Below, one piece after another: positions 2,296 through 45,614 of a stretch of DNA of 64,000 nt. The stretch is taken from NCBI GenBank assembly GCA_050485685.1, contig JBJHBW010000001.1, positions 146,118 to 210,117 on the forward strand. The letters are read 5' to 3'. Numbering within the stretch: the stretch's first letter is position 1; each line of letters starts with the position of its first letter. The notes under the pieces were generated by a model that worked only from the letters and a program-made list of their open reading frames with translations, searched no databases and was not told the origin of the DNA. Made by a program: the position numbers and the translations under genes. This stretch comes from Gammaproteobacteria bacterium. Its GTDB lineage: Bacteria; Pseudomonadota; Gammaproteobacteria; Steroidobacterales; Rariloculaceae.

Positions 2296-3801
2296 CTAGC
2301 GGTTCTGCGCGTTCTGCAGCTGCTGCTGAACCTGCGTATTGTGCCCCTGCATCTGCTCCATCGTCGGCAGGCGCTGAGAGCCCGGGTTCGCATCCAGAAT
2401 CGCGGCATTGACCGCATTCATTCCGGTGTGCGCCGGCCACTGCGGAAGGCCCTCACCATTCGGATTGCCGGTGCGGGCGAAATTCACCCAGTACGATGCC
2501 ATCATGTCGGCAACACGCTGGTTGTCCGGCGATGCCGCAACGCGGGCAGCGTCGCTGCTGTCGGGAAACAGCGGAACCTCGCCGAGATTGTCGAATACGT
2601 ACTTCACCTCCGCCGCATGCACCGGCAGGTAAGGCTCGTCCGCATTCGCCGCCGGCGAAGTCTGAGTGAACCAGTACACCCAGCCGTTCTGCCCGGCCGC
2701 GCGCTGATACTCGGCCAGCCGCCAGGAAATGTGGAAGATGCGATCGGAACCATCCGATGCACCCGGCTCAGGTCGTGCTCCGAACGACAGCTCGAACGCA
2801 TTCGCGCCGGTCAGGATGTCCACCGGATGCTGGCGTCCGGCGGCAAACACGAGCGCCGGATCCTCGGGGATCACGTAGTTGTCCACGATCATGGTCTGCG
2901 CACGGAAGGTCTGGGATACCTCCTCGGTACTCAGTGCGCGCAGATCCGCCGCGGTGTTGAGGCCGGCGGCCTCAGCCTGGGTCTGCCCCTGCCGCTCCTG
3001 CGCAGCCAGCGTCGCATTGGGCGCGCTCGGTGAAATGGCACCACCCATGATGCTCTGCGGAATTGCACGGTGGAACAGCCCCTCGGCCAATGGCGACGTC
3101 ATCAGCGAGGCGATCGCCATCGCGCCGGCGGACTGGCCGAACACGGTGACGTTGTCGGGGTCGCCGCCGAATGCAGCGATATTGCGCTGCACCCACTCCA
3201 GCGACGCAACCATGTCCATCAGGCCCCAGTTGCCGGAGCTGTTCACGCCCGAGTCAGCTGTCAGCGCCGGATGGGCAAGGAAACCGAAAGGTCCCAGACG
3301 GTAGTTCATCGTCACGACCACGGCGCCACGCTCGGACAGTGCGGTGCCGTCGTAAAGCGGTGCCGCGCCGCCGCCATCGGTGAACGCGCCGCCGTAGAAA
3401 TAGACCATGACAGGCAGTCCATCGCCGGCCGACGTGGCTGATGTCCACACATTCAGATAGAGGCAGTCTTCGCTCAGCGGCGGCGTGCCATCCATGTTGG
3501 CGATATTGATATAGCGCGGTTCGGTCGGCGGTTGCACGCAGGTATTGCCGAACTGACTGGCGTCACGAACACCGTCCCAGGGCGCCACCGGCTGCGGCGG
3601 CCGCCAGCGATTCTCACCCACCGGCGGCGCAGCGAAAGGCAGACCACGGAATACCCGCACGCCCGACGCAGTGGTTTCGCCACCGGATACCAGTCCGGTA
3701 TCCAACCTCACCGGATCTTCAATCGCGGCATGACAGGCTGTTGCCGCCACCGCAAGACCTGCGAGCCAGCCGACCCGCGTACTCAGTTTGAATCGCTTCA
3801 C
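2296..3801 (-). CDS. Secreted type-B carboxylesterase/lipase
   Basis: The ORF track gives 2296..3828. It contains the nucleophile elbow FGQSAGA, EDCLYLNVW and a GGAF oxyanion region. A GGAGGA Shine-Dalgarno sits 8 nt upstream of an in-frame GTG at 3801, which would give the signal peptide KRFKLSTRVGWLAGLAVAATACHA. I therefore prefer 3801 over the ATG at 3828. Confidence 0.85.
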   Translation of the reverse strand: MKRFKLSTRVGWLAGLAVAATACHAAIEDPVRLDTGLVSGGETTASGVRVFRGLPFAAPPVGENRWRPPQPVAPWDGVRDASQFGNTCVQPPTEPRYINIANMDGTPPLSEDCLYLNVWTSATSAGDGLPVMVYFYGGAFTDGGGAAPLYDGTALSERGAVVVTMNYRLGPFGFLAHPALTADSGVNSSGNWGLMDMVASLEWVQRNIAAFGGDPDNVTVFGQSAGAMAIASLMTSPLAEGLFHRAIPQSIMGGAISPSAPNATLAAQERQGQTQAEAAGLNTAADLRALSTEEVSQTFRAQTMIVDNYVIPEDPALVFAAGRQHPVDILTGANAFELSFGARPEPGASDGSDRIFHISWRLAEYQRAAGQNGWVYWFTQTSPAANADEPYLPVHAAEVKYVFDNLGEVPLFPDSSDAARVAASPDNQRVADMMASYWVNFARTGNPNGEGLPQWPAHTGMNAVNAAILDANPGSQRLPTMEQMQGHNTQVQQQLQNAQNR

Positions 3802-3896
3802 TTTTGTTTTCCTCCAGATCCTCTGCACGGCGACTCACCGCTCTCCCCTGCGGCGCCACATTCTCCGCTGTCCCTCGTCAGCGGCCTGTCGACAAC

Positions 3897-3917
3897 TCTC
3901 CTCCAAGTGGGAGGAGA
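3897..3917 (-). terminator. Candidate stem-loop downstream of the CoA-binding protein gene
   Basis: 8-bp stem tctcctcc / ggaggaga with a 5-nt loop, 53 nt after the stop at 3970. There is no U-tract, so termination function is uncertain. Confidence 0.3.
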
Positions 3918-3969
3918 TAGTACTTGCCAGCACCTCGCGATCACAACGCGCGGCAACGGCCTGCCCTGG

Positions 3970-4461: not shown

Positions 4462-5816
4462 GACCGAGCCCCCCCGGCGGGTTCGCCGGCAGGTTCTTTG
4501 CCCAAGCCATCGGCAGAGGCGCCGCTCCTTTGACCGGCTGCGGCAAAACCCTGTTTCAGATCCCAGATCAGGTCGTCCACATCCTCTATGCCGACCGACA
4601 GGCGTATCGTGCCGCCCCTGACGCCCGCCGCCTCGAGTTCCGCCTCCTCCAGCTGCCGGTGTGTGGTACTGGCCGGATGAATCACCAGGCTCTTTGCATC
4701 GCCGACATTGGCCAGATGCGACCACAGCGACAAGGCACGAATAAAGGCCTGGCCCGCCTCGCGGCCGCCCTCGATGTCGAACGAGAACACCGCGCCGGCC
4801 CCTCGCGGCAGATACCTGTTCGCCAGCGACTGATAACGGTTGCCGTCCAAACCCGCATAGCTGACCCGCGACACCTGGGGATGCGCCTCCAGGAAGCGTG
4901 CAATGGCCAGCGCATTGCTCACGTGCCGTTCCATGCGCAGCGACAGCGTCTCCAGCCCCTGCAGGAACAGGAACGCATTGAAAGGCGACAGGCAGGCGCC
5001 GAGATCACGCAGGGTCTCGGCACGCAGCTTCATCAGGTAGCCATAGATACCGAAGGTCTCGTGGAACTTCAGGCCGTGATAGGCAGGCGACGGTTCGGCC
5101 ATGATCGGGAAACGGCCGTTCGACCAGTTGAACGTGCCCGAATCGACGACCACGCCGCCGATGCTGGTGCCGTGTCCGCCCAGGAACTTGGTCGCCGAGT
5201 GCACGACGATGTCCGCGCCCCATTCCATGGGTCGGCACAGCCACGGCGTGGCAAAGGTGTTGTCGACGATGAACGGGACTCCGCGCTCATGCGCGATACC
5301 GGCGATCGCCTCTATATCGAGCACATTGCCGGCGGGATTCCCTATGGTCTCGGCAAAAAACACTTTCGTGTTGTCGCGCAGCGCATCGCGCCAGCGCGCC
5401 GGGTCATCGGGATCCACCCAGCTCAGGCTCACATTCATCTTGCGCAGCACATGCTTGAGCTGATTGACCGTGCCGCCATACAGCGCCGCGGACGACACCA
5501 TATGGTCACCGGGCTCCAGCAGTGTGAACAGTGCCGCCATCTGGGCAGCCAGCCCGCTGGCGAAAGCCACCGCACCGCATCCACCTTCCAGACTGGCCAT
5601 GCGTTCCTCGAACGCGGCGACGGTCGGATTCATGATGCGCGAGTACGTGTTGCCGTACTCCTGCAGATTGAAATACGCAGCGGCCGATTCCGGATCCTCG
5701 AACACGTAGCTCGTGGTCTGATAGATCGGCACCGCGCGCGCGCCGGTATTCGGGTCCGGGCGCTGGCCGGCATGTACCTGACGGGTGGCGAAGCCGAAGC
5801 GTCTTGATTCTTCCAT
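4458..5816 (-). CDS. metY: O-acetylhomoserine sulfhydrylase (PLP-dependent, Cys/Met metabolism family)
   Basis: The N-terminus reads [10 protein letters not shown]...[10 protein letters not shown]...[12 protein letters not shown]-lysine context is present ([11 protein letters not shown]). It lies directly downstream of metX. Confidence 0.9.
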
Positions 5817-5819
5817 CGG

Positions 5820-7031
5820 TTATGACCGCTCGGACATGGACAGGAAACGACGGATCATAGGGGTCTGGCGCGCCTCTTCCAACAGGAAGCAGTCATGGCC
5901 GTAGGGCGCATCGATCACATGCAGTTCCACGTCCCTGCCGCAGGCGCTGAGCGCGCCGACCAGTTGCTCGGAATCAGCCGGCGGATACAGCCAGTCGGAG
6001 CTGAACGCAATCAGCAGGGTTCTTGCCGACACGCCCCGCACCGCGGCCGCGAGATCGCCGTTGCCGTGGTCACGGGCAAGGTCGAAATAGGTCAGCGCGC
6101 GTGACAGGTAGAGATAGGTGTTCGCATCGAAACGCTTCACGAACGAATCGGCCTGGTGGCGCAGATAGCTTTCCACGGCAAATTCCGGTTCGTCGAGAAC
6201 GAAACGGATATCGTCGGCGAACTGCAGCTCGCGACCGAACTTGCGCCGCAGCGCCTCGGCGGACAGATAGGTGATGTGACCGATCATGCGTGCCACGCCC
6301 ATGCCGCGCCCCGGAGAGCGGCCCGTACCGTAGTAATGACCCAGCTGCCAGTCCGGATCCGACATGATCGCGTTGCGCGCGATCGCATTCCAGGCCAAGC
6401 CCTGCGGACCCAGCGCCGCCGTGCTCGCGATGGCGATGATCGCATCCACGGCATCCGGATAGCGCACCGCCCACTCAAGTGCCTGCATGCCGCCTAACGA
6501 CCCGCCGGCGACCGCGGCCAGTCGCTCTATACCCAGTGCATCCAGAAATGCGCGTTGCGCGCGCACCATGTCTGCAACGGTGATCACCGGAAAATCGCCG
6601 CCCCAGGGCCGGCCGGTGTCGGGGTCCACACATGAAGGGCCAGTGGAACCGCCGCAGCCGCCGATAAGATTCGTGCTGACGACGAAGTACCGGTCAGTAT
6701 CGAACGCCTTGCCGGGACCGATCATCCCGTCCCACCAGCCAAGTCCGCGATTGCGGCTGCCGTCACGCTCCTCGGCGCCGAATCCGTCCCGCGTGCCGGC
6801 GGCCGGCGTCTTGCGCGCCAGACCTGCCGCATGGGCATCGCCCGACAACGCGTGACAGACAAGAATGACGTTGTCACGGGCGGCAGCGAGCGTACCGTAA
6901 GTCTCATAGGCGATACGCACCTGCTTCAGCTGCTGGCCGCAATCCAGCGGCAGCGGGTGCTGAAGATCCAGATACTGCGTATCCACGGTGCCCACTGAGC
7001 CTGCGGCCGGGCTGATCGCTCGCGTCGCCAT
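5820..7031 (-). CDS. metX: Homoserine O-acetyltransferase
   Basis: Alpha/beta-hydrolase with the nucleophile motif GGSLGGMQALEW, IAYETYG near the N-terminus and HDCFL at the C-terminus. There is a 3-nt gap to metY. Confidence 0.9.
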   Translation of the reverse strand: MATRAISPAAGSVGTVDTQYLDLQHPLPLDCGQQLKQVRIAYETYGTLAAARDNVILVCHALSGDAHAAGLARKTPAAGTRDGFGAEERDGSRNRGLGWWDGMIGPGKAFDTDRYFVVSTNLIGGCGGSTGPSCVDPDTGRPWGGDFPVITVADMVRAQRAFLDALGIERLAAVAGGSLGGMQALEWAVRYPDAVDAIIAIASTAALGPQGLAWNAIARNAIMSDPDWQLGHYYGTGRSPGRGMGVARMIGHITYLSAEALRRKFGRELQFADDIRFVLDEPEFAVESYLRHQADSFVKRFDANTYLYLSRALTYFDLARDHGNGDLAAAVRGVSARTLLIAFSSDWLYPPADSEQLVGALSACGRDVELHVIDAPYGHDCFLLEEARQTPMIRRFLSMSERS

Positions 7032-11690: not shown

Positions 11691-12065
11691 TCAGTTGACC
11701 GGATAGACGTCGTAGTTCGTGCCGTCGTGCGTCACGCGGCGCGTCTTCACCTCATGACGGTTCGCGTCACTGTTGCGCGCGCCCATGACCGTCACGGTGT
11801 CGCCTTCGGACAGCACGTTCTCATTGAGCCCGGCGCGACTGGTTCGCGGTGCCGGCGCCAGCGTGATGTCCCAGACCTGACCATCGGCGTCACGGATCTG
11901 CATGCTTGCATGGGGGCCGGCCAGACTGACGGGACGGACCACCGTGCCAGTCAGTTCTATCGCCGCGGTGTTGTCGCTCCAGCCATGGTGTGCACCGGCC
12001 GCAGACATCAGGCCGATGGCGGAAGCCGCCGTCGCTATCAGTACCAATCCACTGCGTGTGCGCAT
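11691..12065 (-). CDS. Small secreted protein, DUF6152-like
   Basis: GGAGG Shine-Dalgarno 6 nt before the ATG at 12065. Signal peptide MRTRSGLVLIATAASAIGLMSAAGA followed by HHGWS. The mature part of about 100 aa looks beta-rich. The upstream part of the track ORF (to 12431) was rejected. Confidence 0.6.
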   Translation of the reverse strand: MRTRSGLVLIATAASAIGLMSAAGAHHGWSDNTAAIELTGTVVRPVSLAGPHASMQIRDADGQVWDITLAPAPRTSRAGLNENVLSEGDTVTVMGARNSDANRHEVKTRRVTHDGTNYDVYPVN

Positions 12066-12285
12066 GGTTGACCTCCTTCGGGTCCTGCCGGTTGGTAGCA
12101 GACATTGGCGCGGATTTCTGCATCCGCGACACAGCCAGATTACTGGACACGCCGGCAAAAATCCAAACTCGCCGCAGCACGCACGCGCCGGAATTTTGCT
12201 GCCGGGCCCGTGCGTAGCCCACAATAGGCCGTCAGAGACCGGCCTGAACCGGTCCGCATTCGCTGCACCGACACGGGAGACCCCT

Positions 12286-13197
12286 ATGCCACGCCTGTTT
12301 CTGATCGCCGTTGCCGTCGCTGTCCTTGCGGCCTGTGCATCCCCGTCAGTCAAGGCCGAAACACGCGTGATTGCGCTGGGCACCGGCACACCGGTACCCG
12401 ATCCGGAGCGCGCCGGATCCTCGATTGCCATTGTGGTCGGCGGCGAAGCCTACCTGTTCGACGCTGGCGGCGGCACCGTGCAGCGCGCCATCGAGGCGTC
12501 GGCCCGCTACGACCTGCCGGAACTGATTCCGCAGAGCATCCGCCACCTGTTCATCACGCACATGCACAGCGACCACATCCATGACATCGCCGAGCTCGCC
12601 TCAGCGCGCTGGTGGTCCAGGGAACACCGCCTGAACGTCTACGGACCACGCGGCATCGCCGAGTACATTGAGCACATGAACGCGATGGGCGATGTGGAAG
12701 CTGCAATACGCGTACCGGGCACGCCGCCGGAACTGATCAACGACCGTTACGGCTACCGCGCAATCACAACGGAAATAGAAGACGGAGTCGTATTCGAGAA
12801 CGAACACATCTCGGTGCGCGCATTCACGGTCGACCACGGCGACATCCGACCGGCCTACGGCTATCGCATCGAAACCGCCGACCGCACCATCGTCATCTCC
12901 GGCGACACCGCATTCAGCGAACGCCTGATCGCACAGTCACAGAATGTCGACCTGCTGTTCCACGAAGTCGTGAGCGGCGATCGGCTGTCCGAGATGTCGG
13001 AATTCTGGCAGCACTACCACGGCACCTCGCACACCACCACCGACGAACTGGCCGAAGTCGCCAATCGAACCCAACCCGGCACGCTCGTGCTCTACCACGT
13101 CCTCTTCATAGGGGCCACCGGCGACGAAATCGTCGCCGAAATCACCCGCAGCTACGACGGTCGCGTCGTCCTGGCCAACGACCTCGACGAATTCTGA
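12286..13197 (+). CDS. MBL-fold metallo-hydrolase lipoprotein (RNase Z/ElaC-like beta-lactamase fold)
   Basis: Lipobox in MPRLFLIAVAVAVLAAC. Metal-binding motif HMHSDHIHD. The track ORF start at 11902 lies inside and antisense to the neighbouring gene, so it was trimmed to the ATG at 12286. Confidence 0.85.
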   Translation: MPRLFLIAVAVAVLAACASPSVKAETRVIALGTGTPVPDPERAGSSIAIVVGGEAYLFDAGGGTVQRAIEASARYDLPELIPQSIRHLFITHMHSDHIHDIAELASARWWSREHRLNVYGPRGIAEYIEHMNAMGDVEAAIRVPGTPPELINDRYGYRAITTEIEDGVVFENEHISVRAFTVDHGDIRPAYGYRIETADRTIVISGDTAFSERLIAQSQNVDLLFHEVVSGDRLSEMSEFWQHYHGTSHTTTDELAEVANRTQPGTLVLYHVLFIGATGDEIVAEITRSYDGRVVLANDLDEF

Positions 13198-13222
13198 CGC
13201 GGCTTCATCCTGCTGGACGAGT

Positions 13223-13446
13223 GCTGACGCGGCTTTTTCCTGAACGCCATGTCAACGTTTCCTGCACTCTCTGTCGTGACCTGACCCTCACGAGGGGGCG
13301 TCCGCGGCCAGGGATGGCCGCGGCCGAGGCCGCAGGACGCGACTTTCGCCGTCCCCCTCGTGAGGGTCAGGTCACGACAGAGAGCGCAAACCGCCCACGC
13401 CGATGGCGTTCAGGAAGAAGCCGCCCGATGCGGCGAGCGTGTCAGC
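13223..13446. repeat. Nested palindromic intergenic element (~224 nt) with a perfect 32-bp inverted repeat
   Basis: Inner arms 13267-13298 and 13353-13384 are perfect reverse complements (ctctctgtcgtgacctgaccctcacgaggggg). A central 9-bp hairpin pairs 13302-13310 with 13315-13323. Outer arms cctgaacgccat (13239-13250) / atggcgttcagg (13403-13414) and gctgac (13223-13228) / gtcagc (13441-13446) also pair. The 19-nt left end is repeated at 13194-13212 across the stop codon of the upstream gene. Confidence 0.85.
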
Positions 13447-13513
13447 CGCAGCCTGGCGTGGCCAGTCGTGCCAAGGCATGGCAGGGCATACCCTGCCGCA
13501 GCCAGGCTTGGTA

Positions 13514-14422
13514 TCAGCTGTCGTCGCGCTCGATGTAGCGGCGTGTGAGTCCGCTGTAGGCGTCGATGCGGCGGTCGCGGAAGAAGGGCCAGCCGACGCG
13601 GACCGTCTCAATCGCAGCGAAGTCCAGCTGTTCGATGATGATGGCGTCGCGGTCGGCAGGGGCGCGCGCGATGATGCGGCCGTCCGGGGCGGCGATGAAG
13701 CTTTGTCCCCAGAATTCTATGCCGCCGTCGCTGGCCGGGTCCGGTTCGAAGCCGTGGCGATTCACGGCGAGTACGTAGCAGCCGTTCGCGATGGCATGGG
13801 CGCGCTGCATGGTTTCCCAGGCGCTGTGCTGGCTGGGTCCGTGCGTGTCTTTTTCTTCGGGGTGCCAGCCGATCGCGGTTGGATACACGAGCACTTCGGC
13901 GCCGGACAGTGCCGTCAGGCGGGCTGCCTCCGGATACCACTGATCCCAGCACACCAGTACGCCGAGTTCGCAGGCTGACGTGCTGAACGTACCGAAGCCG
14001 AGGTCACCGGGTGTGAAGTAGAACTTCTCGTAATAGCGCGGATCGTCGGGGATGTGCATCTTGCGATACTTGCCGACATAGCCTTTCGCGCCATCCAGCA
14101 CGGCTGCGGTGTTGTGGAACAGGCCGGGCGCGCGGCGCTCGAACAGGCTGGCGACCACGGTCACGTCGAGTTCGGACGCGAGTTTCCCGACCGCATCCGT
14201 CGCAGGACCGGGTATGGATTCGGCCAGTGCGAAGTGGGCCGCGTCCTCGGTCTGGCAGAAGTAGCGGCTCGTGAACAGCTCGGGCAGCACGATCAGCTTC
14301 GCGCCCTGTGCCGCGGCATCGCGGATCTTTTCCAGGGCATGGGCCAGATTGCGCTGCGGCGCCTCATCCATGGCCATCTGCACCAGCCCGACCGTCAGTG
14401 GCGTGCGCGTGTCGCGTGTCAT
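13514..14422 (-). CDS. aguB: N-carbamoylputrescine amidase (nitrilase superfamily)
   Basis: Carbon-nitrogen hydrolase Glu-Lys-Cys context (VLPELF, YRKMHIP, VLVCWDQWYPE). Last gene of the agmatine pathway operon. Confidence 0.9.
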   Translation of the reverse strand: MTRDTRTPLTVGLVQMAMDEAPQRNLAHALEKIRDAAAQGAKLIVLPELFTSRYFCQTEDAAHFALAESIPGPATDAVGKLASELDVTVVASLFERRAPGLFHNTAAVLDGAKGYVGKYRKMHIPDDPRYYEKFYFTPGDLGFGTFSTSACELGVLVCWDQWYPEAARLTALSGAEVLVYPTAIGWHPEEKDTHGPSQHSAWETMQRAHAIANGCYVLAVNRHGFEPDPASDGGIEFWGQSFIAAPDGRIIARAPADRDAIIIEQLDFAAIETVRVGWPFFRDRRIDAYSGLTRRYIERDDS

Positions 14423-14441: not shown

Positions 14442-16418
14442 TCAGGCGTCGCGTTCCATGCTGCCGGGATCGCAGTAGGTGTTCTTCGGGAAGCAGGCCA
14501 TGTACTGATCGAGGATCTCCATGCCCTGCGAAGGACGCACCACGCCGGCCTGAATCTTGCCGCGAATCAGTTCGTTCATGCGGCGGTGCAGGTCGTTGGG
14601 GAAGTACTGCACCTGGGCCAGCATGTCCTGCACCGCGGTGCCGGGAATCACTTTCTCGATCCAGAAGTTGCCGGGCTCCTCGGCGTCGGCATAGATATGC
14701 GCCTCGGACACGCGCCCGAACAGGTTGTGCGCATCGCCGACGATGTCCTCGTACGCGCCCATCAGGAAGAACCCGAGATAGTAAGGTTCACCCGGCACCA
14801 TGGTATGCACCGGCAGGAAGCGGCCATCGCCATGCGCTGACACATAGTGGGTGACCTTGCCGTCGGAGTCGCAGGTCAGGTCCACGAGGATCGCGCGCCG
14901 CGTCGGCTGCTCCTGCAGGCGCTCTATCGGCATGATCGGAAAAGGCTGGCCTATGGCCCAGTGATCGAGCATGGACTGGAACACGGAGAAATCGCACAGG
15001 TACTGATCTGTCAGCAGTACCTCCAGCTCATTGATCTCGGTCTCCGATGCTTCCGGGTTACGCCTCAGGGACTCCAGCAGCGTCGTGCACACGCGCCAGT
15101 AAAGACGTTCGGCCAGCGCGCGCTGTTCCAGCGACATGTAGCCCAGCGTGAACAGGTTGCGCACGTCCTCCAGGCGCTCGTTGGCATCGTGCAGCGCCTC
15201 GGTCAGTTCGCCCGGCTCCACGGTCCCGGGCAGATAGTCCACGATGCGCGCCAGCGCCTGAACCGGTTCGTCAGCGTCCTCATCGATCGTAAGCGGCTGC
15301 GTGACATCGTCCTTGGATTGCGCGCCTATGACCGGCACGATCAGCACCGAATGGTGGGCGGTCAGCGCGCGCCCGCTTTCGGTCACGATCACCGGCACCG
15401 GTACGTCGTTGGCCTCGCAGACCTCCTTGACAGTGAACACGACCGCGTTCGCGTATTCCTGCAGGCTGTAGTTGATGCCGGCATGTTCGCCCAGCTGTCC
15501 CTTGCAGTAGTTCACGCCCAGGCCGCCGCCCACGTCCAGATATTTCAGGCCCACGCCACGCTGGACCAGCGCGGAATAGATCTGAGCGACCTCCTTGATC
15601 GCCTGCTTGAGCACCTGGATATCAGCCACCTGACTGCCGATGTGGCAATGCAGCAGCACCAGTTTGTCCCGCCTGCCCGTGCGCTCAAGCTCACCGACCA
15701 TGCGCACGACTTCGGCCACGCGCAGACCGAACTTTGAATTGCTGCCGGACGACTCCGACCAGCGGCCCGAGCCGCGCGTCGCAAGGCGCACACGCACGCC
15801 CATCACAGGCGCGAAACCTTCCTGTTCGGCCAGCATGTTGATGTCCACGAACTCGGAGTACTTCTCGACCACCGGCACCACGTTCTGGCCAAGCCGCTGC
15901 GCCGACATCATCAGCGACAGCATGGTGCGATCCTTGACGCCATTGCAGACCAGCAGGGTTTCGCCGTTGACATGCGGCAGCGTCGCGATCAGCTCGGCCT
16001 TGGAGCCGCACTCAAGGCCCATGCCATAAGCGCGGCCGGCATCCAGCAGTTCGTCCACCACTTCGTGCAGCTGATTGACCTTGATCGGGTAGATGCCGCG
16101 GTAGACATTGTCATACCCGGCCTCGGCAATGGCTTCGCTGAAGGCTTCGTTGATGCGTCGCACCTGAGCCGACAGGATGTCCTGAAATCGCAGCAGCACC
16201 GGCATCTGTACGCCACGCCTGCGCAGTTCGGCGACAATCGCGGGAATCGCCATTGTCGTGTCCTGATTGTCCAGCGCACGCACCGCCACCTGGCCGTTCT
16301 CGTCTACAAAGAAATACGGTTCGCCCCAGCTGTCGACGCGATAAAGCGCGGATGCGTCATCCACGGACCAGTGTTCCCCGGCAGCGGCGGCCGGCACCTC
16401 GTATGCGCGTACCGACAT
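14442..16418 (-). CDS. speA: Biosynthetic arginine decarboxylase
   Basis: 658 aa with full-length similarity to SpeA as I recognise it (YGIYPIKVN-type region GIYPIKVNQ, PLP-binding fold, C-terminal CDSDGK). There is a 2-nt gap to the upstream gene. Confidence 0.95.
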   Translation of the reverse strand: MSVRAYEVPAAAAGEHWSVDDASALYRVDSWGEPYFFVDENGQVAVRALDNQDTTMAIPAIVAELRRRGVQMPVLLRFQDILSAQVRRINEAFSEAIAEAGYDNVYRGIYPIKVNQLHEVVDELLDAGRAYGMGLECGSKAELIATLPHVNGETLLVCNGVKDRTMLSLMMSAQRLGQNVVPVVEKYSEFVDINMLAEQEGFAPVMGVRVRLATRGSGRWSESSGSNSKFGLRVAEVVRMVGELERTGRRDKLVLLHCHIGSQVADIQVLKQAIKEVAQIYSALVQRGVGLKYLDVGGGLGVNYCKGQLGEHAGINYSLQEYANAVVFTVKEVCEANDVPVPVIVTESGRALTAHHSVLIVPVIGAQSKDDVTQPLTIDEDADEPVQALARIVDYLPGTVEPGELTEALHDANERLEDVRNLFTLGYMSLEQRALAERLYWRVCTTLLESLRRNPEASETEINELEVLLTDQYLCDFSVFQSMLDHWAIGQPFPIMPIERLQEQPTRRAILVDLTCDSDGKVTHYVSAHGDGRFLPVHTMVPGEPYYLGFFLMGAYEDIVGDAHNLFGRVSEAHIYADAEEPGNFWIEKVIPGTAVQDMLAQVQYFPNDLHRRMNELIRGKIQAGVVRPSQGMEILDQYMACFPKNTYCDPGSMERDA

Positions 16419-16420
16419 GG

Positions 16421-17392
16421 TTACTCTCCCAGCACGTAGGCAAAAATCAGGGGTGCGACGATGGTCGCGTCGGATTCGATCACGAATTTCGGCGTATCTG
16501 CGGAGAGCTTGCCCCAGGTGATCTTCTCGTTCGGCACTGCACCGGAATAGGATCCGTAGCTCGTCGTGGAATCACTGATCTGGCAGAAGTACCCCCAGCG
16601 CGGCACGTCCTCGTACTCAAGGTCCTGCTCCAGCATGGGCACCACACAGATAGGGAAGTCACCGGCGATGCCGCCTCCGATCTGAAAGAAGCCTATGGAC
16701 TGCCGTGCACTGGTCTCGCGATACCATTCCGCCAGCTCCATCATGTATTCGATACCGGACCGCACGGTGAGCGGATCCTCAATACGACCGGCGATGCAGT
16801 GCGCAGCAAAGAAGTTGCCCAGCGTCGAGTCTTCCCAACCGGGTACGAACATGGGCAGGCCGGCCTCGGCGGCCGCCAGCAGCCAGCTGTCTTCAGGATC
16901 GATCTGATAGGACGACTCGAGCTTGCCGCTGAGCAGCACGCGATACAGGAATTCGTGCGGGAACAGTCGCTCGCCATTGCGATCAGCCGCGCTCCACTCC
17001 TCGAACACGGCCTTCTCGATACGCCGCATGGCCTCATGCTCGGGGATGCAGGTGTCGGTAACGCGATTGAGGTGTTGCTCCAGCAGCGCCTCTTCCTGTT
17101 CGGGCGACAGGTGGCGGTAGTGCGGAATGCGCACGTAATGCTCGTGCGCAACCAGATTGAAGATGTCTTCTTCCAGATTCGCGCCGGTGCAGCTGATCGC
17201 GTGCACCTTGCCCCGGCGGATCATCTCGGCAAGCGACAGCCCCAGCTCGGCCGTGCTCATCGCACCGGCCAGCGTGATCAGCATCTGACCGCCGGCATCG
17301 AGATGGTGCACATAGCCGTCGGCCGCATCGCGCAACGCTGCGGCATTGAAGTGACGGTAGTTGTGGCGGATGAAGTCGGAAATGGCACCCAT
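16421..17392 (-). CDS. Deoxyhypusine synthase-like (DHS/homospermidine synthase-like) protein
   Basis: Motifs ISCTGANLEEDIF and GGGIAGDF are present, and the C-terminal SGAVPNEKITWGKL retains the WGK lysine that forms the enzyme-imine in eukaryotic DHS (as I recall). I chose the ATG at 17392 (MGAISDFI); the upstream 21 codons of the track ORF have no support. Confidence 0.85.
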   Translation of the reverse strand: MGAISDFIRHNYRHFNAAALRDAADGYVHHLDAGGQMLITLAGAMSTAELGLSLAEMIRRGKVHAISCTGANLEEDIFNLVAHEHYVRIPHYRHLSPEQEEALLEQHLNRVTDTCIPEHEAMRRIEKAVFEEWSAADRNGERLFPHEFLYRVLLSGKLESSYQIDPEDSWLLAAAEAGLPMFVPGWEDSTLGNFFAAHCIAGRIEDPLTVRSGIEYMMELAEWYRETSARQSIGFFQIGGGIAGDFPICVVPMLEQDLEYEDVPRWGYFCQISDSTTSYGSYSGAVPNEKITWGKLSADTPKFVIESDATIVAPLIFAYVLGE

Positions 17393-17492
17393 CAGAAACC
17401 CTCGTGCGGGGACGGTCGGCGGGAAAGGTGCACAGAGTAGGAAATCAGACACCACCCTACAATAGCCGCAGCGCCGAAATGCACCATGCCGG

Positions 17493-18578
17493 TCATGTCA
17501 ATGGCGCCGCGCCAGGCACTGCTGGCACCTGCTGCGTCAGGCAGTGAATCGCGCCCAGACCCGCCACCAGCACGCGGCAATCCACCGGGACGACGCGGCG
17601 GCCGGGGAAACACTCACGCAGCACACCGGCGGCTTTGTCGTCGGCGGTGCAGCCGAATGTGGGCAGCAGCACCGCCTCATTGGTAATGAGAAAGTTCGCG
17701 TAACTTGCCGGAAGGCGTTCATCACCGTGATACACCGGCTCGGGCATCGGCAGTTCCAGCACCTCAAGCCGCTGTCCGCTCGTCAGCCGCACCTGATCCA
17801 GGAACTCGCGATTTGCAGCCAGCGGTGCGTGATTGGGATCATCACGACGTGGCTCAACCACGGTGACCACGGTGTCCGGCGCGACGAAGCGCGTCAGGTC
17901 GTCGATATGGCCGTCAGTGTCATCGCCAACGATGCCGTCGCCCAGCCAGATCACCTGACGTACGCCCAGTGCATCCATCAGCAGCTGCTCGATTGCGCCA
18001 CGGTCCAGCGAAGGATTGCGATTCGGATTGAGCAGGCACTGCTCGGTGGTCAGCACCGCACCCTCGCCATTGACGTCTATGGAACCGCCCTCCAGCACCG
18101 CACTGTAGGCCACGCTGGGAACGCCGAGTATGTCGGCCATCGCGCGCGCAACCTTTCTATCAAGATCGAAAGGCGGATACTTCCCGCCCCAGGCGTTGTA
18201 GTCGAAATCCAGCGCCAGCAGCGGCTGCGTCTCATGATCGCGGGTGACGAATATGGCGCCGTGATCGCGCGCCCACGCGTCATTGGTCGGCACCACATGC
18301 AGAACCACGCGCTCAGGTGGCGCCACCGGATCGAGCAGCGCTGCCACGTGGCGGCGGTGTTCATCGCTGAGCACATTGACATACAGCGGCTCGCTGGCTG
18401 CGATCGCGGCGGCCAGCTGCACCATCGCCGGCTCCACCTGATCGAAAAGCCCGGGCCAGGTGTCACGGTTATGCGGCCAAGAGATCCAGGTTGCCGTGTG
18501 CGGCGCCCATTCGGCCGGCATGCGGTAACCGGCGGCCGCCGGTGACGGCGCAGATGGATTCGTTTCAGCAGGATTCAT
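17493..18578 (-). CDS. aguA: Agmatine deiminase
   Basis: MPAEWAPH...WISWPH near the N-terminus and C-terminal GLGAIHCLTQQVP with the catalytic Cys. The start at ATG 18578 gives 19 aa before MPAEW, as in the Pseudomonas AguA I recall. Confidence 0.9.
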   Translation of the reverse strand: MNPAETNPSAPSPAAAGYRMPAEWAPHTATWISWPHNRDTWPGLFDQVEPAMVQLAAAIAASEPLYVNVLSDEHRRHVAALLDPVAPPERVVLHVVPTNDAWARDHGAIFVTRDHETQPLLALDFDYNAWGGKYPPFDLDRKVARAMADILGVPSVAYSAVLEGGSIDVNGEGAVLTTEQCLLNPNRNPSLDRGAIEQLLMDALGVRQVIWLGDGIVGDDTDGHIDDLTRFVAPDTVVTVVEPRRDDPNHAPLAANREFLDQVRLTSGQRLEVLELPMPEPVYHGDERLPASYANFLITNEAVLLPTFGCTADDKAAGVLRECFPGRRVVPVDCRVLVAGLGAIHCLTQQVPAVPGAAPLT

Positions 18579-18724
18579 GGCTTGCGGCGTCTTGACTCGG
18601 GTTTCCAGAATGCGGTAACGCGATCGGGTGCGGACCTGGCCGCCCCGGCAGTCCGGATTGATCCGGAAAAGGGGCGCGATCATACCGTCAGACATCTCAA
18701 TAGCGAAGGCGTTATGATGCGGCC

Positions 18725-19351
18725 ATGCGAATTGTCACGCTATTTCTCCTGCTGACCTGCCTCTGGCCGGGTGCTTTCACAAGCGCATTTGCGCAGGCGC
18801 CGGCCGGTGGCCGGCTGCTGGTCGCAATGCCTGCGATGGACGATCCGAATTTCGCCGAATCCGTCGTGCTGCTGATCGAACACGGCGAACAGGGCAGTTT
18901 CGGCATCCTGATCAATCGTCCCACCTGGGTGTCTCCCGATGAAATCCTGCCGCAGATCGCTGACTACGCCGACTACACCGGCAGCCTGTTCCGCGGTGGC
19001 CCGATGCTGCCGACCACCCCGGTGATGCTGATCCGCAGCGAGGAACTCGCCGAGCGCGGCGCGCGGCCGCTGCTGGGAGATATCTTCGTGACCACGGAGG
19101 TGGAGATTCTCGCGGACCTCGAGCAGCCGCAGTGGAACCCCGGTGTGCTCCGGCTGTTTGCCGGCCATGCCGCCTGGGAGCCGGGAAATCTCGAGCGCGA
19201 AATCGCGAACGGCTACTGGACTGTAGTCAGCGCCAGTGAGGATCTCATCTTCACCGACGACACGGCCGGCTTATGGCAACGGCTGGTCCGGGGCGACGGA
19301 TCGGACGTCAACCGCGGGGCAGCTCAGCCAGCCGCCGACCGCACCTTGTAG
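18725..19351 (+). CDS. YqgE/AlgH-family protein with an N-terminal signal-peptide-like extension
   Basis: LLVAMPAMDDPNFAESVVLLIEHGEQGSFGILINRP is the AlgH/UPF0301 signature. It is preceded by MRIVTLFLLLTCLWPGAFTSAFA. Confidence 0.8.
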   Translation: MRIVTLFLLLTCLWPGAFTSAFAQAPAGGRLLVAMPAMDDPNFAESVVLLIEHGEQGSFGILINRPTWVSPDEILPQIADYADYTGSLFRGGPMLPTTPVMLIRSEELAERGARPLLGDIFVTTEVEILADLEQPQWNPGVLRLFAGHAAWEPGNLEREIANGYWTVVSASEDLIFTDDTAGLWQRLVRGDGSDVNRGAAQPAADRTL

Positions 19352-21245: not shown

Positions 21246-22226
21246 TCAGGCGTCCGGCGACAGATGCCCCCACAGCGACTGAAATGCGAGCCGCACGAAA
21301 TCATCTGCTGGCCCCAGCCGCGCAGTGAACTCGCTCGCCGGCTGCGCTTCCACAGCCTCAGCCGGACTGTAGCCGCGATTGAGCATCTGGCGCAGGCGCA
21401 CGGACAGCGTCTGGTACGCCTCGCGCTGGAACTCGAGGTCGGCCTGCGTCAGCAATGCGCCCTGCGCCGGCACGATCAGCGTATCGGCGTCGACGTGTGT
21501 CTGCAGCGTGCGCACCCCTTCGGCAAGCCCGCTGATCCAGCCGCCGGTCCACCAGTCCATGAACGGCCATCCGGCGCCGGAAGCGACATCACCGGTGAGC
21601 AGCACATTGGCATTGCGGAACAGGACACCGATGTCGCCATCGGTATGCGCCTGACGAAGATAGAAACACTCGACCGTCTCGTCACCAAGAATGAACGACT
21701 CGGTGCTGTAGAACGTGTCATTCGGTCGTGCCGCTTCGGGCAGCGGATCGTGGGTGACGGCTTCCCACGGGCGCGTGATGTCGGTGGTCAGCCACAGGCG
21801 GGTATTTTCGTGCGCAATGATGCGTGCGCCGGAACGGCCCAGTATGTCGTTCGCACCGGTCTGTTCCGGATGCCAGTGCGTATTGATCAGCGTGTGCACC
21901 GGCCCTGAGTCCGGCAGCGCGCGCACCGCCTGCAGCAGCGCATCGGCATGCGCCGCAAGGCCGCCATCGACCAGCAGCACACCGCCGTCCACACCCGTCA
22001 GCGCAACGCTGTTCACACCGGCGCCCTGCAGCAGCCAGAGATTGTCGCGCAGGCGGGTGGACTCGATCACGCCCGTGGCCGGGCTGTCCGCCCGCGGCAG
22101 CGCCGGATCACCGGACTCGGCGCCGATGGGCTGTTGCGCGAACACCGGCCGAAGTGCTGCCGGCAATGCGAGACCTCCCGCACTGCCCAGTGTCGCTTTC
22201 AGTATGGTTCTGCGATTCGCCCGCAT
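21246..22226 (-). CDS. Tat-exported MBL-fold metallo-hydrolase
   Basis: Twin-arginine signal MRANRRTILKATLGSAGGLALPAAL. MBL motif variant NTHWHPEQTG and a downstream AHTDGD. Confidence 0.8.
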   Translation of the reverse strand: MRANRRTILKATLGSAGGLALPAALRPVFAQQPIGAESGDPALPRADSPATGVIESTRLRDNLWLLQGAGVNSVALTGVDGGVLLVDGGLAAHADALLQAVRALPDSGPVHTLINTHWHPEQTGANDILGRSGARIIAHENTRLWLTTDITRPWEAVTHDPLPEAARPNDTFYSTESFILGDETVECFYLRQAHTDGDIGVLFRNANVLLTGDVASGAGWPFMDWWTGGWISGLAEGVRTLQTHVDADTLIVPAQGALLTQADLEFQREAYQTLSVRLRQMLNRGYSPAEAVEAQPASEFTARLGPADDFVRLAFQSLWGHLSPDA

Positions 22227-22572
22227 GTCTCATTTCCCCCACCCGGGACCCGCAAGTCTGTTCCCCTGCGGCAGGACCCGCTACCCGCTGCTCATGCCCG
22301 TAGTGTGCATCAGATCGACTTGCGGCCGCCATGGGCCCGCACAGACTCGAAAACCCGCCTCCGGCGCTGAAACTCCGGCAGGGCACGGGTACAATCAGGG
22401 ATCGTCTCCTGCCCTGGCATTGGAGAAGGGAAGGTCTGCGTCCAGTCTGCACCACACAACAACCACAGGGGGAGCAGCTATCAGTACCGCAGATTCACGC
22501 CCGCGCAGCCGGCTGCGCGGATGGGGTCGCACCGACCGCCACGCGGCAGCCTGCGCGCTGCTGCTCGCGGGC

Positions 22573-25008
22573 ATGGTGGCCGGTTGCGGCTCCGCGCCTT
22601 CGCCTGAAGTGCTCATTGCCGAGCATTCGGCCACACTGAACCGATATTGCCTTGACTGCCACAACCAGGCGGAACAGGCAGGCGACCTGTCGCTGGAGCG
22701 GGTGGAACTGGCCGAACTCGGCCGGCACGCTGACGTTCTCGAAGAAGTCGTGCGCAAACTGCGCGGCAGGCTTATGCCACCTCCTGGCAATCCGCAACTG
22801 TCTGACGAGACGCTGTGGTCGCTGGTCAGCTGGCTGGAACAGGGCCTTGATGCGCAGGCCATGGCCGACCCACAGCCCGGCAGGGTCGCACTGCACCGCC
22901 TGAACCGGCGCGAGTATTCGAACGCTGTCCGCGACCTGCTCGCACTTGAGGTCGATGCCGCGCAACTGCTGCCACAGGACGACACTGCCTCCGGCTTCGA
23001 CAACATCGCCTCGGCACTGCAGGTATCCCCTTCGTTTCTGGAACAGTACGTCGGCGCTGCGCGCCAGGTTGCCGTACGCGCGGTCGGCCAGAGCGCACCG
23101 CGACCCGGCAGCCGCACCTACAACGTACGCAGCGGCAATCAGCAGAACCACGTGCCGGGGCTTCCGCTGGGCACGCGCGGCGGCGCCATGGTCGAACACG
23201 ATTTTCCGGTCACCGGCGAATACATGCTGAACATCGCCGACCTCGCCCAGGCACTGTGGGTCTACAACATGGAGTTCGAAAACCACCTCGTGGTGACGCT
23301 CAACGGCGAGCGGGTGTTCGAGACGACCATAGGCGGCGACGACGACATGCGCGCCATAGACCAGGATCAGGACCCGGCCGTGGACGCCATCAACCGGCGT
23401 CTCAAGAACATCCGTTTTCACGCCCCGGCGGGTCCGCAACAGGTCGGCGTCACGTTCGTGCGGCGCACCCTCGCCGAATCGGATGACCGGCTGCGGCCTT
23501 TTGCGCCCGGGGGTGGCCAGGACCGCGTGCTGCGCATACAGTCTTTCGAGATCAGCGGGCCGTTCGTCAGCGAAGGCCTGGACAGCACCCCGAGTCGCGA
23601 CCGCATTTTCAGCTGCTATCCCGACAGTGAGGCCGACGCGCGCCCCTGCGCTGAAAGCATACTCAACCGGCTGGCCCGGCAGGCTTACCGGCGGCCGGTC
23701 AACGACGCCGACATTGCCGAGCTGATGGATTATTACGACGATGGCGCCAGTGGCGGCGGTTTCGAAGAAGGCGTACGCACAGCCCTCACCGGACTGCTGG
23801 CCAGTCCCTGGTTCCTCTACCGTGCCGAACAGATCCCGGAAACCCGGCATGCGGACGGCAGTTACCGCATCAGCGATCTCGAGTTTGCATCACGGCTGTC
23901 GTTCTTCCTGTGGAGTTCGCTGCCCGACGATGAACTGCTGGAGCTGGCCCTGAGCGGCGGGCTTTCCGATCCGGCGGTACGCGAGCAGCAGGTGCGGCGC
24001 ATGCTCGCCGATCGCCGCGCCGAGTCGCTGGCAACCAGCTTCGCGCACCAGTGGCTGCATCTGGATCACCTCAGTGAAGTCAATCCGGACAGCGTGATCT
24101 TCCCGTACGCATCCGGCACGGCGGACCCGCGACCGCACTATCTGCAGGAAATCACCCTGTTCGTGGACAGCATCTTTCGCAACGACCGCAACGTGGTCGA
24201 GCTGTTGTCGGCCAGTTACTCCTATCTCAACGAGCCGCTGGCGCTGCTGTATGGCGAGACGGGCGTGAAGGGCAATCACTTCCGTCGGGTGGAGCTGTCG
24301 CATTCGGCTCGCCGCGGCCTGCTCGGCAAGGGCGCGATACTGATGGCCTCGTCCTACCCGAATCGCACTGCGCCTGTGCTGCGTGGCGCCTACATACTCG
24401 AGAACATTCTCGGCACACCGCCCGCCCCTCCGCTGCCCGACGTGGAAGCACTGGCTGACAGCGGCACAACGGGCCGTGACATGCTGACAGTGCGCGAACT
24501 GATGGCCCGTCACAGCCAGGATCCATCCTGCTTCTCCTGCCACGGCGTCATGGATCCGCTCGGCTTCGCACTGGAGAACTTCAACGCGGTGGGCCTGTGG
24601 CGCGACCGTGACCGCTTTGCCGGCGTACCGGTGGATGCCAGCGGCGAACTGCCGGACGGCACGCTGATCAATGGCCCGGACGACCTTCGCGAGGCGCTGT
24701 TGCGCCGTCCCGACCAGTTCGTGCAGACACTGACCGAAAGACTGATGACCTATGCCCTGGGCCGGGAAATCACCCACCACGACATGCCCGTGGTGCGCTC
24801 AATCGTGCGTGAGGCGGCACGCAACGACTACCGGTTCTCATCTCTGATCATGGGTATCGTGGAAAGCACACCGTTCACGATGCGTCGCGTCAGTCCTGAC
24901 GAGGGCGGCACCGTGACCGCATCGGCGGGATCAACGACCACACCGGCATCGACATCTGCATCGCAATCACCAGATACACCGACACTGGCGCAGTTCACAG
25001 CGCGCTGA
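22573..25008 (+). CDS. Large periplasmic heme-binding protein of the DUF1587/DUF1592/DUF1595/DUF1585/DUF1588 (planctomycete PSCyt/PSD-type) family; start uncertain (22480-22573)
   Basis: Two CxxCH motifs are present: CLDCH at 22648-22662 and CFSCH at 24529-24543. The long alpha-rich body has motifs I associate with these DUFs (LMPPPGNPQ, FLWSSLPDDELL, MDPLGFALENF). The first ATG is at 22573, but the lipobox-like LAGMVAGC spans it. The track ORF start at 21715 is antisense to the MBL gene and was rejected. Confidence 0.85.
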   Translation: MVAGCGSAPSPEVLIAEHSATLNRYCLDCHNQAEQAGDLSLERVELAELGRHADVLEEVVRKLRGRLMPPPGNPQLSDETLWSLVSWLEQGLDAQAMADPQPGRVALHRLNRREYSNAVRDLLALEVDAAQLLPQDDTASGFDNIASALQVSPSFLEQYVGAARQVAVRAVGQSAPRPGSRTYNVRSGNQQNHVPGLPLGTRGGAMVEHDFPVTGEYMLNIADLAQALWVYNMEFENHLVVTLNGERVFETTIGGDDDMRAIDQDQDPAVDAINRRLKNIRFHAPAGPQQVGVTFVRRTLAESDDRLRPFAPGGGQDRVLRIQSFEISGPFVSEGLDSTPSRDRIFSCYPDSEADARPCAESILNRLARQAYRRPVNDADIAELMDYYDDGASGGGFEEGVRTALTGLLASPWFLYRAEQIPETRHADGSYRISDLEFASRLSFFLWSSLPDDELLELALSGGLSDPAVREQQVRRMLADRRAESLATSFAHQWLHLDHLSEVNPDSVIFPYASGTADPRPHYLQEITLFVDSIFRNDRNVVELLSASYSYLNEPLALLYGETGVKGNHFRRVELSHSARRGLLGKGAILMASSYPNRTAPVLRGAYILENILGTPPAPPLPDVEALADSGTTGRDMLTVRELMARHSQDPSCFSCHGVMDPLGFALENFNAVGLWRDRDRFAGVPVDASGELPDGTLINGPDDLREALLRRPDQFVQTLTERLMTYALGREITHHDMPVVRSIVREAARNDYRFSSLIMGIVESTPFTMRRVSPDEGGTVTASAGSTTTPASTSASQSPDTPTLAQFTAR

Positions 25009-25021
25009 GGAGAAACGGGCC

Positions 25022-32517: not shown

Positions 32518-32893
32518 GCTGTTTACTCCTCGACATGCCCACTGCCCGATGGCAGTTCATGCTGTTACCTGTCAGAGCGCCCGTCTGCCCGGAGCGTCAT
32601 GACCGCACAGTTAGAAAGCGGATTGTGCGACCGGTTCCCACCGCGTCGCTGCCGGCGGGCGAACCCCGACTGCCACGCGCAAACCTTCTCCTGAAGCCCG
32701 GCAACTATAGGCTGTACAGCGCCACAGTCAACAAGAAAAAAATAATACAAAACATGTACTTACGTTATCGTTCCCGAAACCGTCCAGCACGGTCGGCAGG
32801 CGATGCACCAATTACAGGCACGCGAGCGTGAAATGCCACTCAGCGAACGGTAACCGAAGCATCGTAGAATGCGCTGACGCTGCGGAGGACAAC

Positions 32894-34183: not shown

Positions 34184-34203
34184 GCCCTGCACCGCCAGGC
34201 CCG

Positions 34204-38438: not shown

Positions 38439-38477
38439 GACACTTGCCGCGCATGCAGAATCCGTGTTCGGGCGAAC

Positions 38478-40688: not shown

Positions 40689-40751
40689 CCCGACGGACAC
40701 TGCGCCGGCGACATCCCGCAGCCCGCGCGGAACCGGTAACCTCCTGCCGTT

Positions 40752-42833: not shown

Positions 42834-42837
42834 GCGG

Positions 42838-45459: not shown

Positions 45460-45614
45460 GGGCATCCTTACCCTCAAACATCGGCTGATTATCCCCCCCC
45501 CGCCGTGACAGGGGCAACGGCACAGCACACATTAGCCGTAAGCTGCTCCGATTCACGCCGCAGAGGCGCCGGCGGGACAGAAGCCACATTCCGGGCTACT
45601 GCCCTGCACACCTG

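Follow-up and report, generated by a model that had tools for sequence, protein, structure and literature searches.

The 64-kb window analysed here (64,000 nt of contig JBJHBW010000001.1, from a gammaproteobacterium) contains at 13229-13424, between two convergent genes, a 196-nt palindrome that is one copy (variant B) of a previously undescribed dispersed repeat family, probably a form of non-autonomous mobile DNA of the MITE (miniature inverted-repeat transposable element) or REPIN type. We favor this reading because the family is multi-copy, because its copies are intergenic beside unrelated housekeeping genes, and because one insertion/absence polymorphism was found between related genomes. 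The element is best filed as a MITE/REPIN-like repeat with a variant architecture that constitutes a new family, rather than as a proven member of either class. A MITE or a REP/BIME-like mobile palindrome had already been proposed in an initial annotation of this DNA, and the proposal is now supported by a dispersed multi-copy family, by terminal inverted repeats, and by one case of presence and absence at orthologous sites.

The palindrome and its family

The core of the element is an inverted repeat in which 13267-13298 is the exact reverse complement of 13353-13384 (32 nt), with pairing that runs on to 13263-13298 and 13353-13388 (36 nt, 97%). These inner arms are separated by a 54-nt spacer containing a 9-bp hairpin (ccgcggcca-ggga-tggccgcgg, 13302-13323) and a second small hairpin (~13334-13354), and they are enclosed by an outer layer of 22 nt (13229-13250 and 13403-13424, 95% complementary). 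Outside the palindrome arms lies a further inverted pair, GCTGAC at 13223 and GTCAGC at 13441. The perfect 32-nt repeat, the central hairpin, the outer arms, the GCTGAC/GTCAGC pair and a separate hairpin at 13480-13497 had all been described in the initial annotation, and every coordinate and sequence given there proved accurate. What had been taken for a variable stretch of 13-15 nt between the arm layers is actually a conserved polar module of the family. The element is the only long inverted repeat in the window. No match to the 32-mer, with up to 3 mismatches allowed, was obtained in 100 shuffles of the window, and the arm patterns never arose in shuffled sequence. From terminal repeat to terminal repeat, the 196 nt are predicted to fold at -157 kcal/mol as minus-strand RNA (z = -15.7) and at -88.8 kcal/mol as plus-strand DNA (z = -13.1). 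The single open reading frame (ORF) that crosses the element (13221-13538) is without a Pfam match and is not kept in other copies.

Within the 64-kb window, no second copy was found by pattern search, by an nhmmer profile, or by a covariance model with filters off, which bears out the earlier observation of a single copy; the family covariance model, with filters off, scored the window copy at 130 bits and the next best site in the window at 15.7 bits (E = 0.12). Neither 185,579 species-representative genomes nor the metagenome collection of the Joint Genome Institute (JGI) contained an exact match to an inner-arm 21-mer, and this arm is therefore copy-specific. Two relatives were found via the aguB protein encoded beside the element. 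One is a JGI contig (L001) with a 97% identical aguB protein, whose right arm is essentially the same as that of the window and which ends inside the central hairpin. The other is a contig of a metagenome-assembled genome (MAG; L002, GCA_050485645.1, 84% aguB protein identity), which also ends inside the hairpin and in which the arm sequence is unrelated and the central sequence the same. A 22-nt apex pattern drawn from the centre common to these two relatives matched 38 loci, 29 of them (31 matches) in two sister MAGs named 'Gammaproteobacteria bacterium SF2967_J5348' (JBJHBP and JBJHBT); BLAST and a profile search added three copies with diverged centres. The other nine pattern loci were rejected as coding-sequence coincidences with flanks unrelated to the repeat. 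At L007, L023, L024, L025, L031 and L037, all from Desulfobacterota or Syntrophobacter MAGs, the pattern lies inside a conserved protein-coding stretch whose flanks can be aligned among those MAGs, a G+C-rich coincidence.

Most matches in the sister MAGs lie no more than 60 nt from a contig end, because the apex repeat, being longer than 55 nt, collapses in assembly. The left and right halves found at contig ends re-pair one to one by arm complementarity, as for L009 with L033 (45/45). A practical consequence is that the family explains short-read assembly breaks in these MAGs, and that contig ends can be joined via the complementarity of the arms. After such re-pairing, at least ~15 elements are counted in JBJHBP and at least ~7 in JBJHBT, both lower bounds over the DNA covered, which comprises the surroundings of exact seed matches. 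A 26-base apex pattern had no match in a metagenome scan, no family member was found among viral contigs, phage records and plasmid records, and relatives with a 75-77% identical aguB had none in ~82 kb surrounding that gene. Two matches in Rhodococcus plasmids were dismissed as short G+C-rich chance matches. As far as the searches reach, the family appears to be restricted to a small clade of uncultured Gammaproteobacteria.

The family comprises palindromic, intergenic elements of about 190-230 bp, and the window copy aligns with it along its full length, through termini, polar module, stem base and apex. Family orientation corresponds to the minus strand of the window. The termini are an inverted repeat around the palindrome TTCATGAA, with the consensus GGATTnTTCATGAACGG (GGMTTnTTCMTGAAC) at one or both ends in ~10 of 16 reconstructed copies and the version GGCTTnTTCCTGAACGCC in the window, where the left terminal inverted repeat (13229-13250, plus strand) reads GCGGCTTTTTCCTGAACGCCAT, homologous to that consensus, and the right one (13403-13424, plus strand) reads ATGGCGTTCAGGAAGAAGCCGC. 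A reading of the TTCATGAA termini (GGATTnTTCATGAAC termini) as coding sequence was discarded, as the ORF concerned spans one copy (L029) and not the window copy. Inside the termini lies the polar, non-palindromic module, which differs by side: the family has a G-rich GGYGTGGTGGCCGG on the left and CCGGCTTTGACGnTGTCG on the right, the window versions being GGCGTGGGCGGTTT and AACGTTGACA. On the plus strand of the window, one side (13251-13262) reads GTCAACGTTTCC, its minus strand being the TTGAC-containing side that is conserved across the family, and the other (13389-13402) reads AAACCGCCCACGCC, which on the minus strand is GGCGTGGGCGGTTT, the G-rich side of the family module. The conserved TTGAC motif was also considered as part of a sigma-70 promoter, and this was rejected since no -10 box stands at the proper spacing and a promoter scan was empty.

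The inner arms are ~35 nt each and self-complementary at 92-100%; in the window, the left arm (13263-13298, plus strand) is 36 nt long, 32 of them perfect, with a copy-specific sequence, and the right arm (13353-13388, plus strand) is its reverse complement. They enclose an apex of ~62 nt, GGGGACGGCGGAAGAGCGTCCATGCGCCTCGGCCGCGGCCATCCATGGCCGCGGACGCCCC, with two small hairpins and a conserved one-base bulge at the stem base. The near-invariant apex of the window copy (13294-13357, minus strand) reads GGGGACGGCGAAAGTCGCGTCCTGCGGCCTCGGCCGCGGCCATCCCTGGCCGCGGACGCCCC and is 98% identical to a minus-strand copy in L029. Together with the JGI ortholog and one L029 copy, the window copy makes up subfamily B, whose apex is a variant (GAAAGTCGCGTCCTGCGG ... 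CCATCCCTGG) and whose stem base reads CCCTCACGAGGGGG. In MAG JBJHBP, a copy rebuilt from two contig ends, L030 (~2396-2440) and L011 (~4975-5020), has around it another inverted repeat, 43 nt long and perfect (TCATTCCTCACCGCAGCGCCCTGCCCGCAAGGATCATGTGTGG), beyond the polar module and situated between cdsA and the rseP region. This is either a palindrome that has grown outward into the flanks or an element that lies inside another palindrome.

Invariant apex, mirrored arms

An alignment of 18 copies has a consensus structure of 52 pairs. Paired cells amount to 94.5%, versus 82% with shuffled partners and ~45% in slid controls, and double changes occur in 28 of the 52 pairs, including 27 of the 35 arm pairs; 100 cells carry a double change, versus 23 expected from shuffles. 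Identity between subfamily-A copies is 63-66% in the arms and 96% in the apex, the latter value being in part an effect of ascertainment because 22 of the 62 apex columns were fixed by the search pattern. The other 40 apex columns are near-identical in the seed-found copies, and the three profile-found copies differ at a few apex positions.

Orthologous copies allow the changes to be followed over short distances. In the sister MAGs, whose flanking proteins are 92-97% identical, and in the comparison of the window with its JBJHBT ortholog, mirrored arm differences outnumber one-sided ones by 8 versus 2, by 4 versus 2 and, for the window pair, by 15 versus 2, and the mirrored differences mostly lead from one Watson-Crick pair to another. 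Judged from these alignments, the arms are changing at about the rate of unconstrained DNA, both sides together. Length changes are mirrored as well, as in a (GGGTC)n expansion in both arms of L010_L027 and a ~20-nt insertion in both arms of L003_L004. Even the polar module has been made palindromic in some copies, with the right-hand type on both sides in L015_L035, L036_L022, L034_L013 and L009_L033, and L021_L040 and L028 carry the left-hand type on each side. Pairing in the stems is perfectly Watson-Crick, and G-U is very rare; a strand count of G-U versus A-C mismatches, flank noise included, gave an equivocal 40 versus 26. The scarcity of G-U pairs, the mirrored length changes and the palindromisation of the polar module in both directions therefore favor arm-to-arm copying over RNA-level compensation, and they point to a process at the DNA level rather than to selection on a transcript. 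Intrastrand template switching at quasipalindromes is an established mutational route in E. coli (PMC7202029), and we infer that template switching or a related gene conversion operates on the arms of this family. Target-derived arms, created by insertion of an apex into pre-existing hairpins, are ruled out as a general explanation by the homology of the arms between copies.

A scheme that would accommodate these patterns is as follows. An enzyme encoded elsewhere would move the element, recognising the folded apex and/or the termini. The arms would drift at an approximately neutral rate, and a change in one arm would soon be transferred to its partner, or undone, through intrastrand template switching or through gene conversion in the palindrome. 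Such transfer or reversal would account for arms that differ from copy to copy but match perfectly inside each one, and for the occasional outward spread of the palindrome over the polar module. Selection would hold the apex constant as the recognition site. The family may provide a handle for seeking the factor that reads the apex. Orthologous copies appear to show mirroring in progress, which would make this family a natural test case for the upkeep of long perfect palindromes in bacterial chromosomes, be it by template switching or by selection.

The same covariation could be expected if the element were a host-functional structured RNA, such as a 3'-UTR stabiliser, a terminator or a small RNA, in which pairing in the transcript maintains the stem and the apex is a motif bound by protein or RNA. 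Strong covariation in the arms is in its favor, as are a compensatory C-G to U-A change inside the apex itself (columns 80/107) in three diverged copies, the position of many copies directly after gene ends, and a slight strand preference in folding: through G-U pairing in the polar module, minus-strand RNA gains ~7 pairs (-216.9 versus -210.6 kcal/mol for the plus strand). However, the stems are perfectly Watson-Crick paired, almost without G-U, and neither this nor the mirrored insertions and repeat expansions nor the polar module palindromised in two directions would be needed for selection at the RNA level. In addition, copies lie in both orientations relative to their neighbours, divergent gene pairs included, no promoter-like site and no T-tract terminator were found, and one orthologous site has no copy. 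In the Rfam search that the initial annotation had suggested, no family matched the window at the gathering threshold; permissive searches returned just eukaryotic miRNA-precursor models far below threshold (e.g. 45 bits versus 197), a generic signal of long hairpins. We regard a structured RNA as an unlikely explanation of the element as a whole, but the invariant apex might still be such an RNA or a protein-binding site, the other alternatives of the initial annotation.

A different account of the same arms makes the invariant 62-nt apex the target of an enzyme specific for hairpins, which would recognise it and copy or move the element in the form of a folded single strand, with one arm of each new copy synthesised from the other. 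By hairpin-primed or template-switch synthesis, the arms would be born perfectly complementary, would diversify fast, and might extend the palindrome into the flanks, of which the 43-nt mirror of L030/L011 could be an example. We give this account rather little weight. If true, the element would be propagated or maintained by single-strand hairpin copying in a way that has no described counterpart among bacterial MITEs or REPINs.

Probable mobility and the genomic setting

All copies are intergenic, in both orientations, and lie between convergent, tandem or divergent genes; among the unrelated housekeeping genes beside them are those for LptF/G, SerRS (seryl-tRNA synthetase), MnmG, DapD, CdsA and RseP. 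The sole clear insertion/absence polymorphism is seen between the sister MAGs: at 4838-5080 of L029 (JBJHBP), a B-type copy lies between two tandem genes, a DapD-like gene and the next one, and at the corresponding place in the sister MAG (L027) there are ~8 nt from stop to start. Counting copies, comparing their flanks, looking for target-site duplications and checking orthologous intergenic sites for presence or absence had been suggested in the initial annotation. Copies with differing flanks indeed occur in relatives, and one of them is absent in the sister MAG, and no target-site duplication could be defined. L029 carries three copies in 2.7 kb (3756-3932, 4890-5031 and 6249-6426), the middle one being this B-type copy, of mixed orientation and two subfamilies, which bracket the DapD-like gene and the next gene. 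At ~1400-1560 of L027 (minus strand, JBJHBT), the site orthologous to the third of these holds a short tandem array of GTGCTGA/GTGCTGC units with no recognisable copy.

Several points weigh against reading the family as mobile DNA, besides the ascertainment in the apex identity described above. Mobility rests on one occupied/empty pair, which formally could be a deletion. Neither in this pair nor at the ends of the other copies was a consistent flanking direct repeat seen that would represent a target-site duplication. The window (40 ORFs scanned) and the neighbourhoods of 20 copies yielded no transposase, integrase or Y1/HUH protein, no multi-copy protein was found among the loci compared around copies, and no parent insertion sequence with matching termini was found in the window or beside the scanned copies. 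The terminal repeats are unrecognisable in 5 of the 16 reconstructed copies. The source genome was assembled through the element into a 345-kb contig with one copy in the 64 kb covered, so the copy number there may be low. Finally, a terminator or stabiliser role of the element is one that we purely infer, and no T-run follows the big stem.

Alternatively, the copies might be bound in the chromosome, as DNA, by a host factor such as a nucleoid protein, gyrase, an IHF-like protein or a replication or segregation factor, in the manner of BIMEs or RIPs, with the apex as the binding site and the arms allowing a cruciform. An apex that is invariant across copies and three genomes, perfect DNA palindromes capable of cruciform formation, and copies spread through the core genome would all suit such a function. 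However, no binding protein or motif was identified, the copy number is low (~7-15 per MAG), one orthologous site is empty, and the regions examined in relatives at 75-77% aguB identity contain no member of the family, which argues against an essential host role. On balance, we consider a host-protein site improbable.

At the window locus itself, the element occupies the shared 3' region of two convergent genes and, if it is transcribed, either mRNA would end in its hairpin of -157 kcal/mol. Unless they are terminated earlier, both convergent transcripts would meet the ~70-bp stem, which plausibly would be an incidental obstacle to read-through and to 3' exonucleases. The idea of an ordinary, single-copy intrinsic terminator acting in both directions on the hydrolase and aguB genes is very improbable in our view: the hairpin is very stable and stands between convergent stop codons, but it belongs to a multi-copy family that includes non-terminator contexts, and a 70-bp stem with conserved internal modules goes far beyond what a terminator needs. 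The main stem lacks a T-run on either strand, the only terminator-like match being a 5-6-bp hairpin at 13439-13420 on the minus strand. The initial annotation had rightly judged the stem too long for an ordinary terminator, as the ~70-bp stem, the conserved modules and the missing T-run now indicate, and the single-copy plain terminator that it had named as the contrary outcome is at odds with a multi-copy family in related genomes. Least credible of all is an artefact of assembly or amplification, such as a fold-back chimera, which can generate palindromes and might be suggested by relatives' contigs that end inside the element, but those ends are accounted for by collapse of the apex repeat (>55 nt), the flanks are two different genes, the arms include a non-palindromic module, the same right arm recurs in an independent JGI assembly, and other MAGs have several full copies in the interior of long contigs.

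The gene on the left that converges on the element (12283-13197, plus strand) encodes a secreted hydrolase of the metallo-beta-lactamase fold (Pfam Lactamase_B_2 and Lactamase_B), with a putative start codon placed at a signal-peptide-like start, codon 128 of ORF 11902-13197. The gene on the right (13514-14422, minus strand) encodes an N-carbamoylputrescine amidase (aguB-like, CN_hydrolase) and likewise converges on the element. At the left junction, a 30-nt tandem duplication (13183-13212 and 13213-13242, plus strand, 83% identical) spans the hydrolase TGA at 13195-13197 and takes in the last 16 nt of the gene, stop included, and the outer 14 nt of the left terminal repeat. The near-duplicate flank that had been noted earlier at the hydrolase stop is thus real as a tandem repeat, but it does not amount to a family-wide target-site duplication, for it is on one side only and was not seen at other family copies. 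The motif GCGGCTTnnTCCTG is present three times, at 13199 (plus), 13229 (plus) and 13411 (minus). By repeating the point where the hydrolase gene meets the terminal repeat, the duplication also creates a second in-frame-looking '...LDEC*' end. A separate stem-loop region at 13446-13512 (no strand assigned) stands between the element and the stop of aguB and has an outer stem at 13450-13457 and 13501-13508 and an inner hairpin at 13480-13497. It is outside the repeat family and poorly conserved in the 97% relative, and it may be the 3' structure of aguB itself.

Next after the amidase gene in the window come genes for an arginine decarboxylase, a deoxyhypusine-synthase-like protein and an agmatine deiminase. 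The polyamine cluster, with genes for agmatine deiminase, the deoxyhypusine-synthase-like protein, arginine decarboxylase and N-carbamoylputrescine amidase (window 14442-18734 and L041-L045), shows synteny among relatives at 75-100% identity. What lies downstream of aguB varies by lineage: the hydrolase gene in the window, a phage-type integrase gene in L041 and a DUF4159 gene in L042. Farther along, 21712-26302 holds a gene pair with planctomycete-type domains in gammaproteobacterial DNA (PSD/PSCyt DUF1592/1588/1585/1587/1595 with cytochrome c, then DUF1552). At 32711-45531, the citrate synthase gene precedes a complete cluster for glycogen metabolism, with genes for a glgA-like synthase, 4-alpha-glucanotransferase, ADP-glucose pyrophosphorylase, branching enzyme, an isoamylase-type debranching enzyme and glucan phosphorylase.

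Relation to known repeats and palindromes

A literature search by sequence strings returned nothing relevant, and the family was compared with known systems by architecture. Integron attC sites have conserved R''/R' core sites at the base of the stem, a variable apex and same-orientation arrays beside an integrase. In contrast, the family has an invariant apex and a variable stem, its copies are scattered in both orientations by housekeeping genes, and no integrase was found in the window. BIME and RIP (RIB) elements of enterobacteria consist of two inverted palindromic units around a conserved central motif, and this plan is shared by the family. However, the arms of BIMEs are conserved REP units, whereas those of the family are copy-specific, and there is no sequence similarity between the two. 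BIMEs carry an IHF site at the centre (PMC3184786); in the family no IHF-like motif was noticed, though no search was aimed at one.

The template-switch mutagenesis of quasipalindromes in E. coli is a known DNA-level process by which an imperfect inverted repeat has one arm rewritten from the other (PMC7202029), which resembles the mirrored substitutions and indels and the outward palindromisation seen here. It differs in that it is a mutational mechanism and not an element family, and its action on the present arms is suggested by patterns in the sequence alone.

Bacterial MITEs such as Correia/CREE, ERIC, bcr1 and Nezha (PMC3184786) are 100-250 bp long, have no ORF and carry terminal inverted repeats; they are intergenic and multi-copy, their occupancy differs between related genomes, and they are predicted to form long RNA or DNA hairpins. 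All of this applies to the family, which is shorter than ~400 bp and non-coding, has terminal inverted repeats and dispersed copies, and shows insertion polymorphism in a single case. MITEs fold into long hairpins, and compensatory changes are known in bcr1 (PMC3184786). In contrast to MITEs, the family comes without an identified target-site duplication or parent insertion sequence, its terminal repeats are less conserved than its centre and absent in some copies, and its arms are perfect and copy-specific.

REPINs are REP doublets that form hairpins and are mobilised by RAYT transposases, and compensatory changes across the hairpin are common in them (PMC3116915). Like REPINs, the members of the family are short, non-coding and intergenic, each folding into a single long hairpin whose poorly conserved parts are kept complementary by frequent two-sided changes, and they form vertically persistent populations in a lineage, with some copies clustered. 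The differences concern number, ends and the distribution of constraint. The family has tens of copies where REPINs have hundreds; its ends are linear repeats around TTCATGAA with neither the stem-loop nor the GTAG-type motif of a REP end; and no Y1_Tnp-type match that would represent a RAYT was found among the proteins scanned in the window and beside 20 copies. In REPINs the ends (REP 16-mers) are invariant and the middle is variable, whereas here the apex is invariant and the arms are variable. The family thus reverses the pattern of conservation of classic MITEs and REPINs, with an invariant tip and arms that change quickly and yet remain mirror images of each other.

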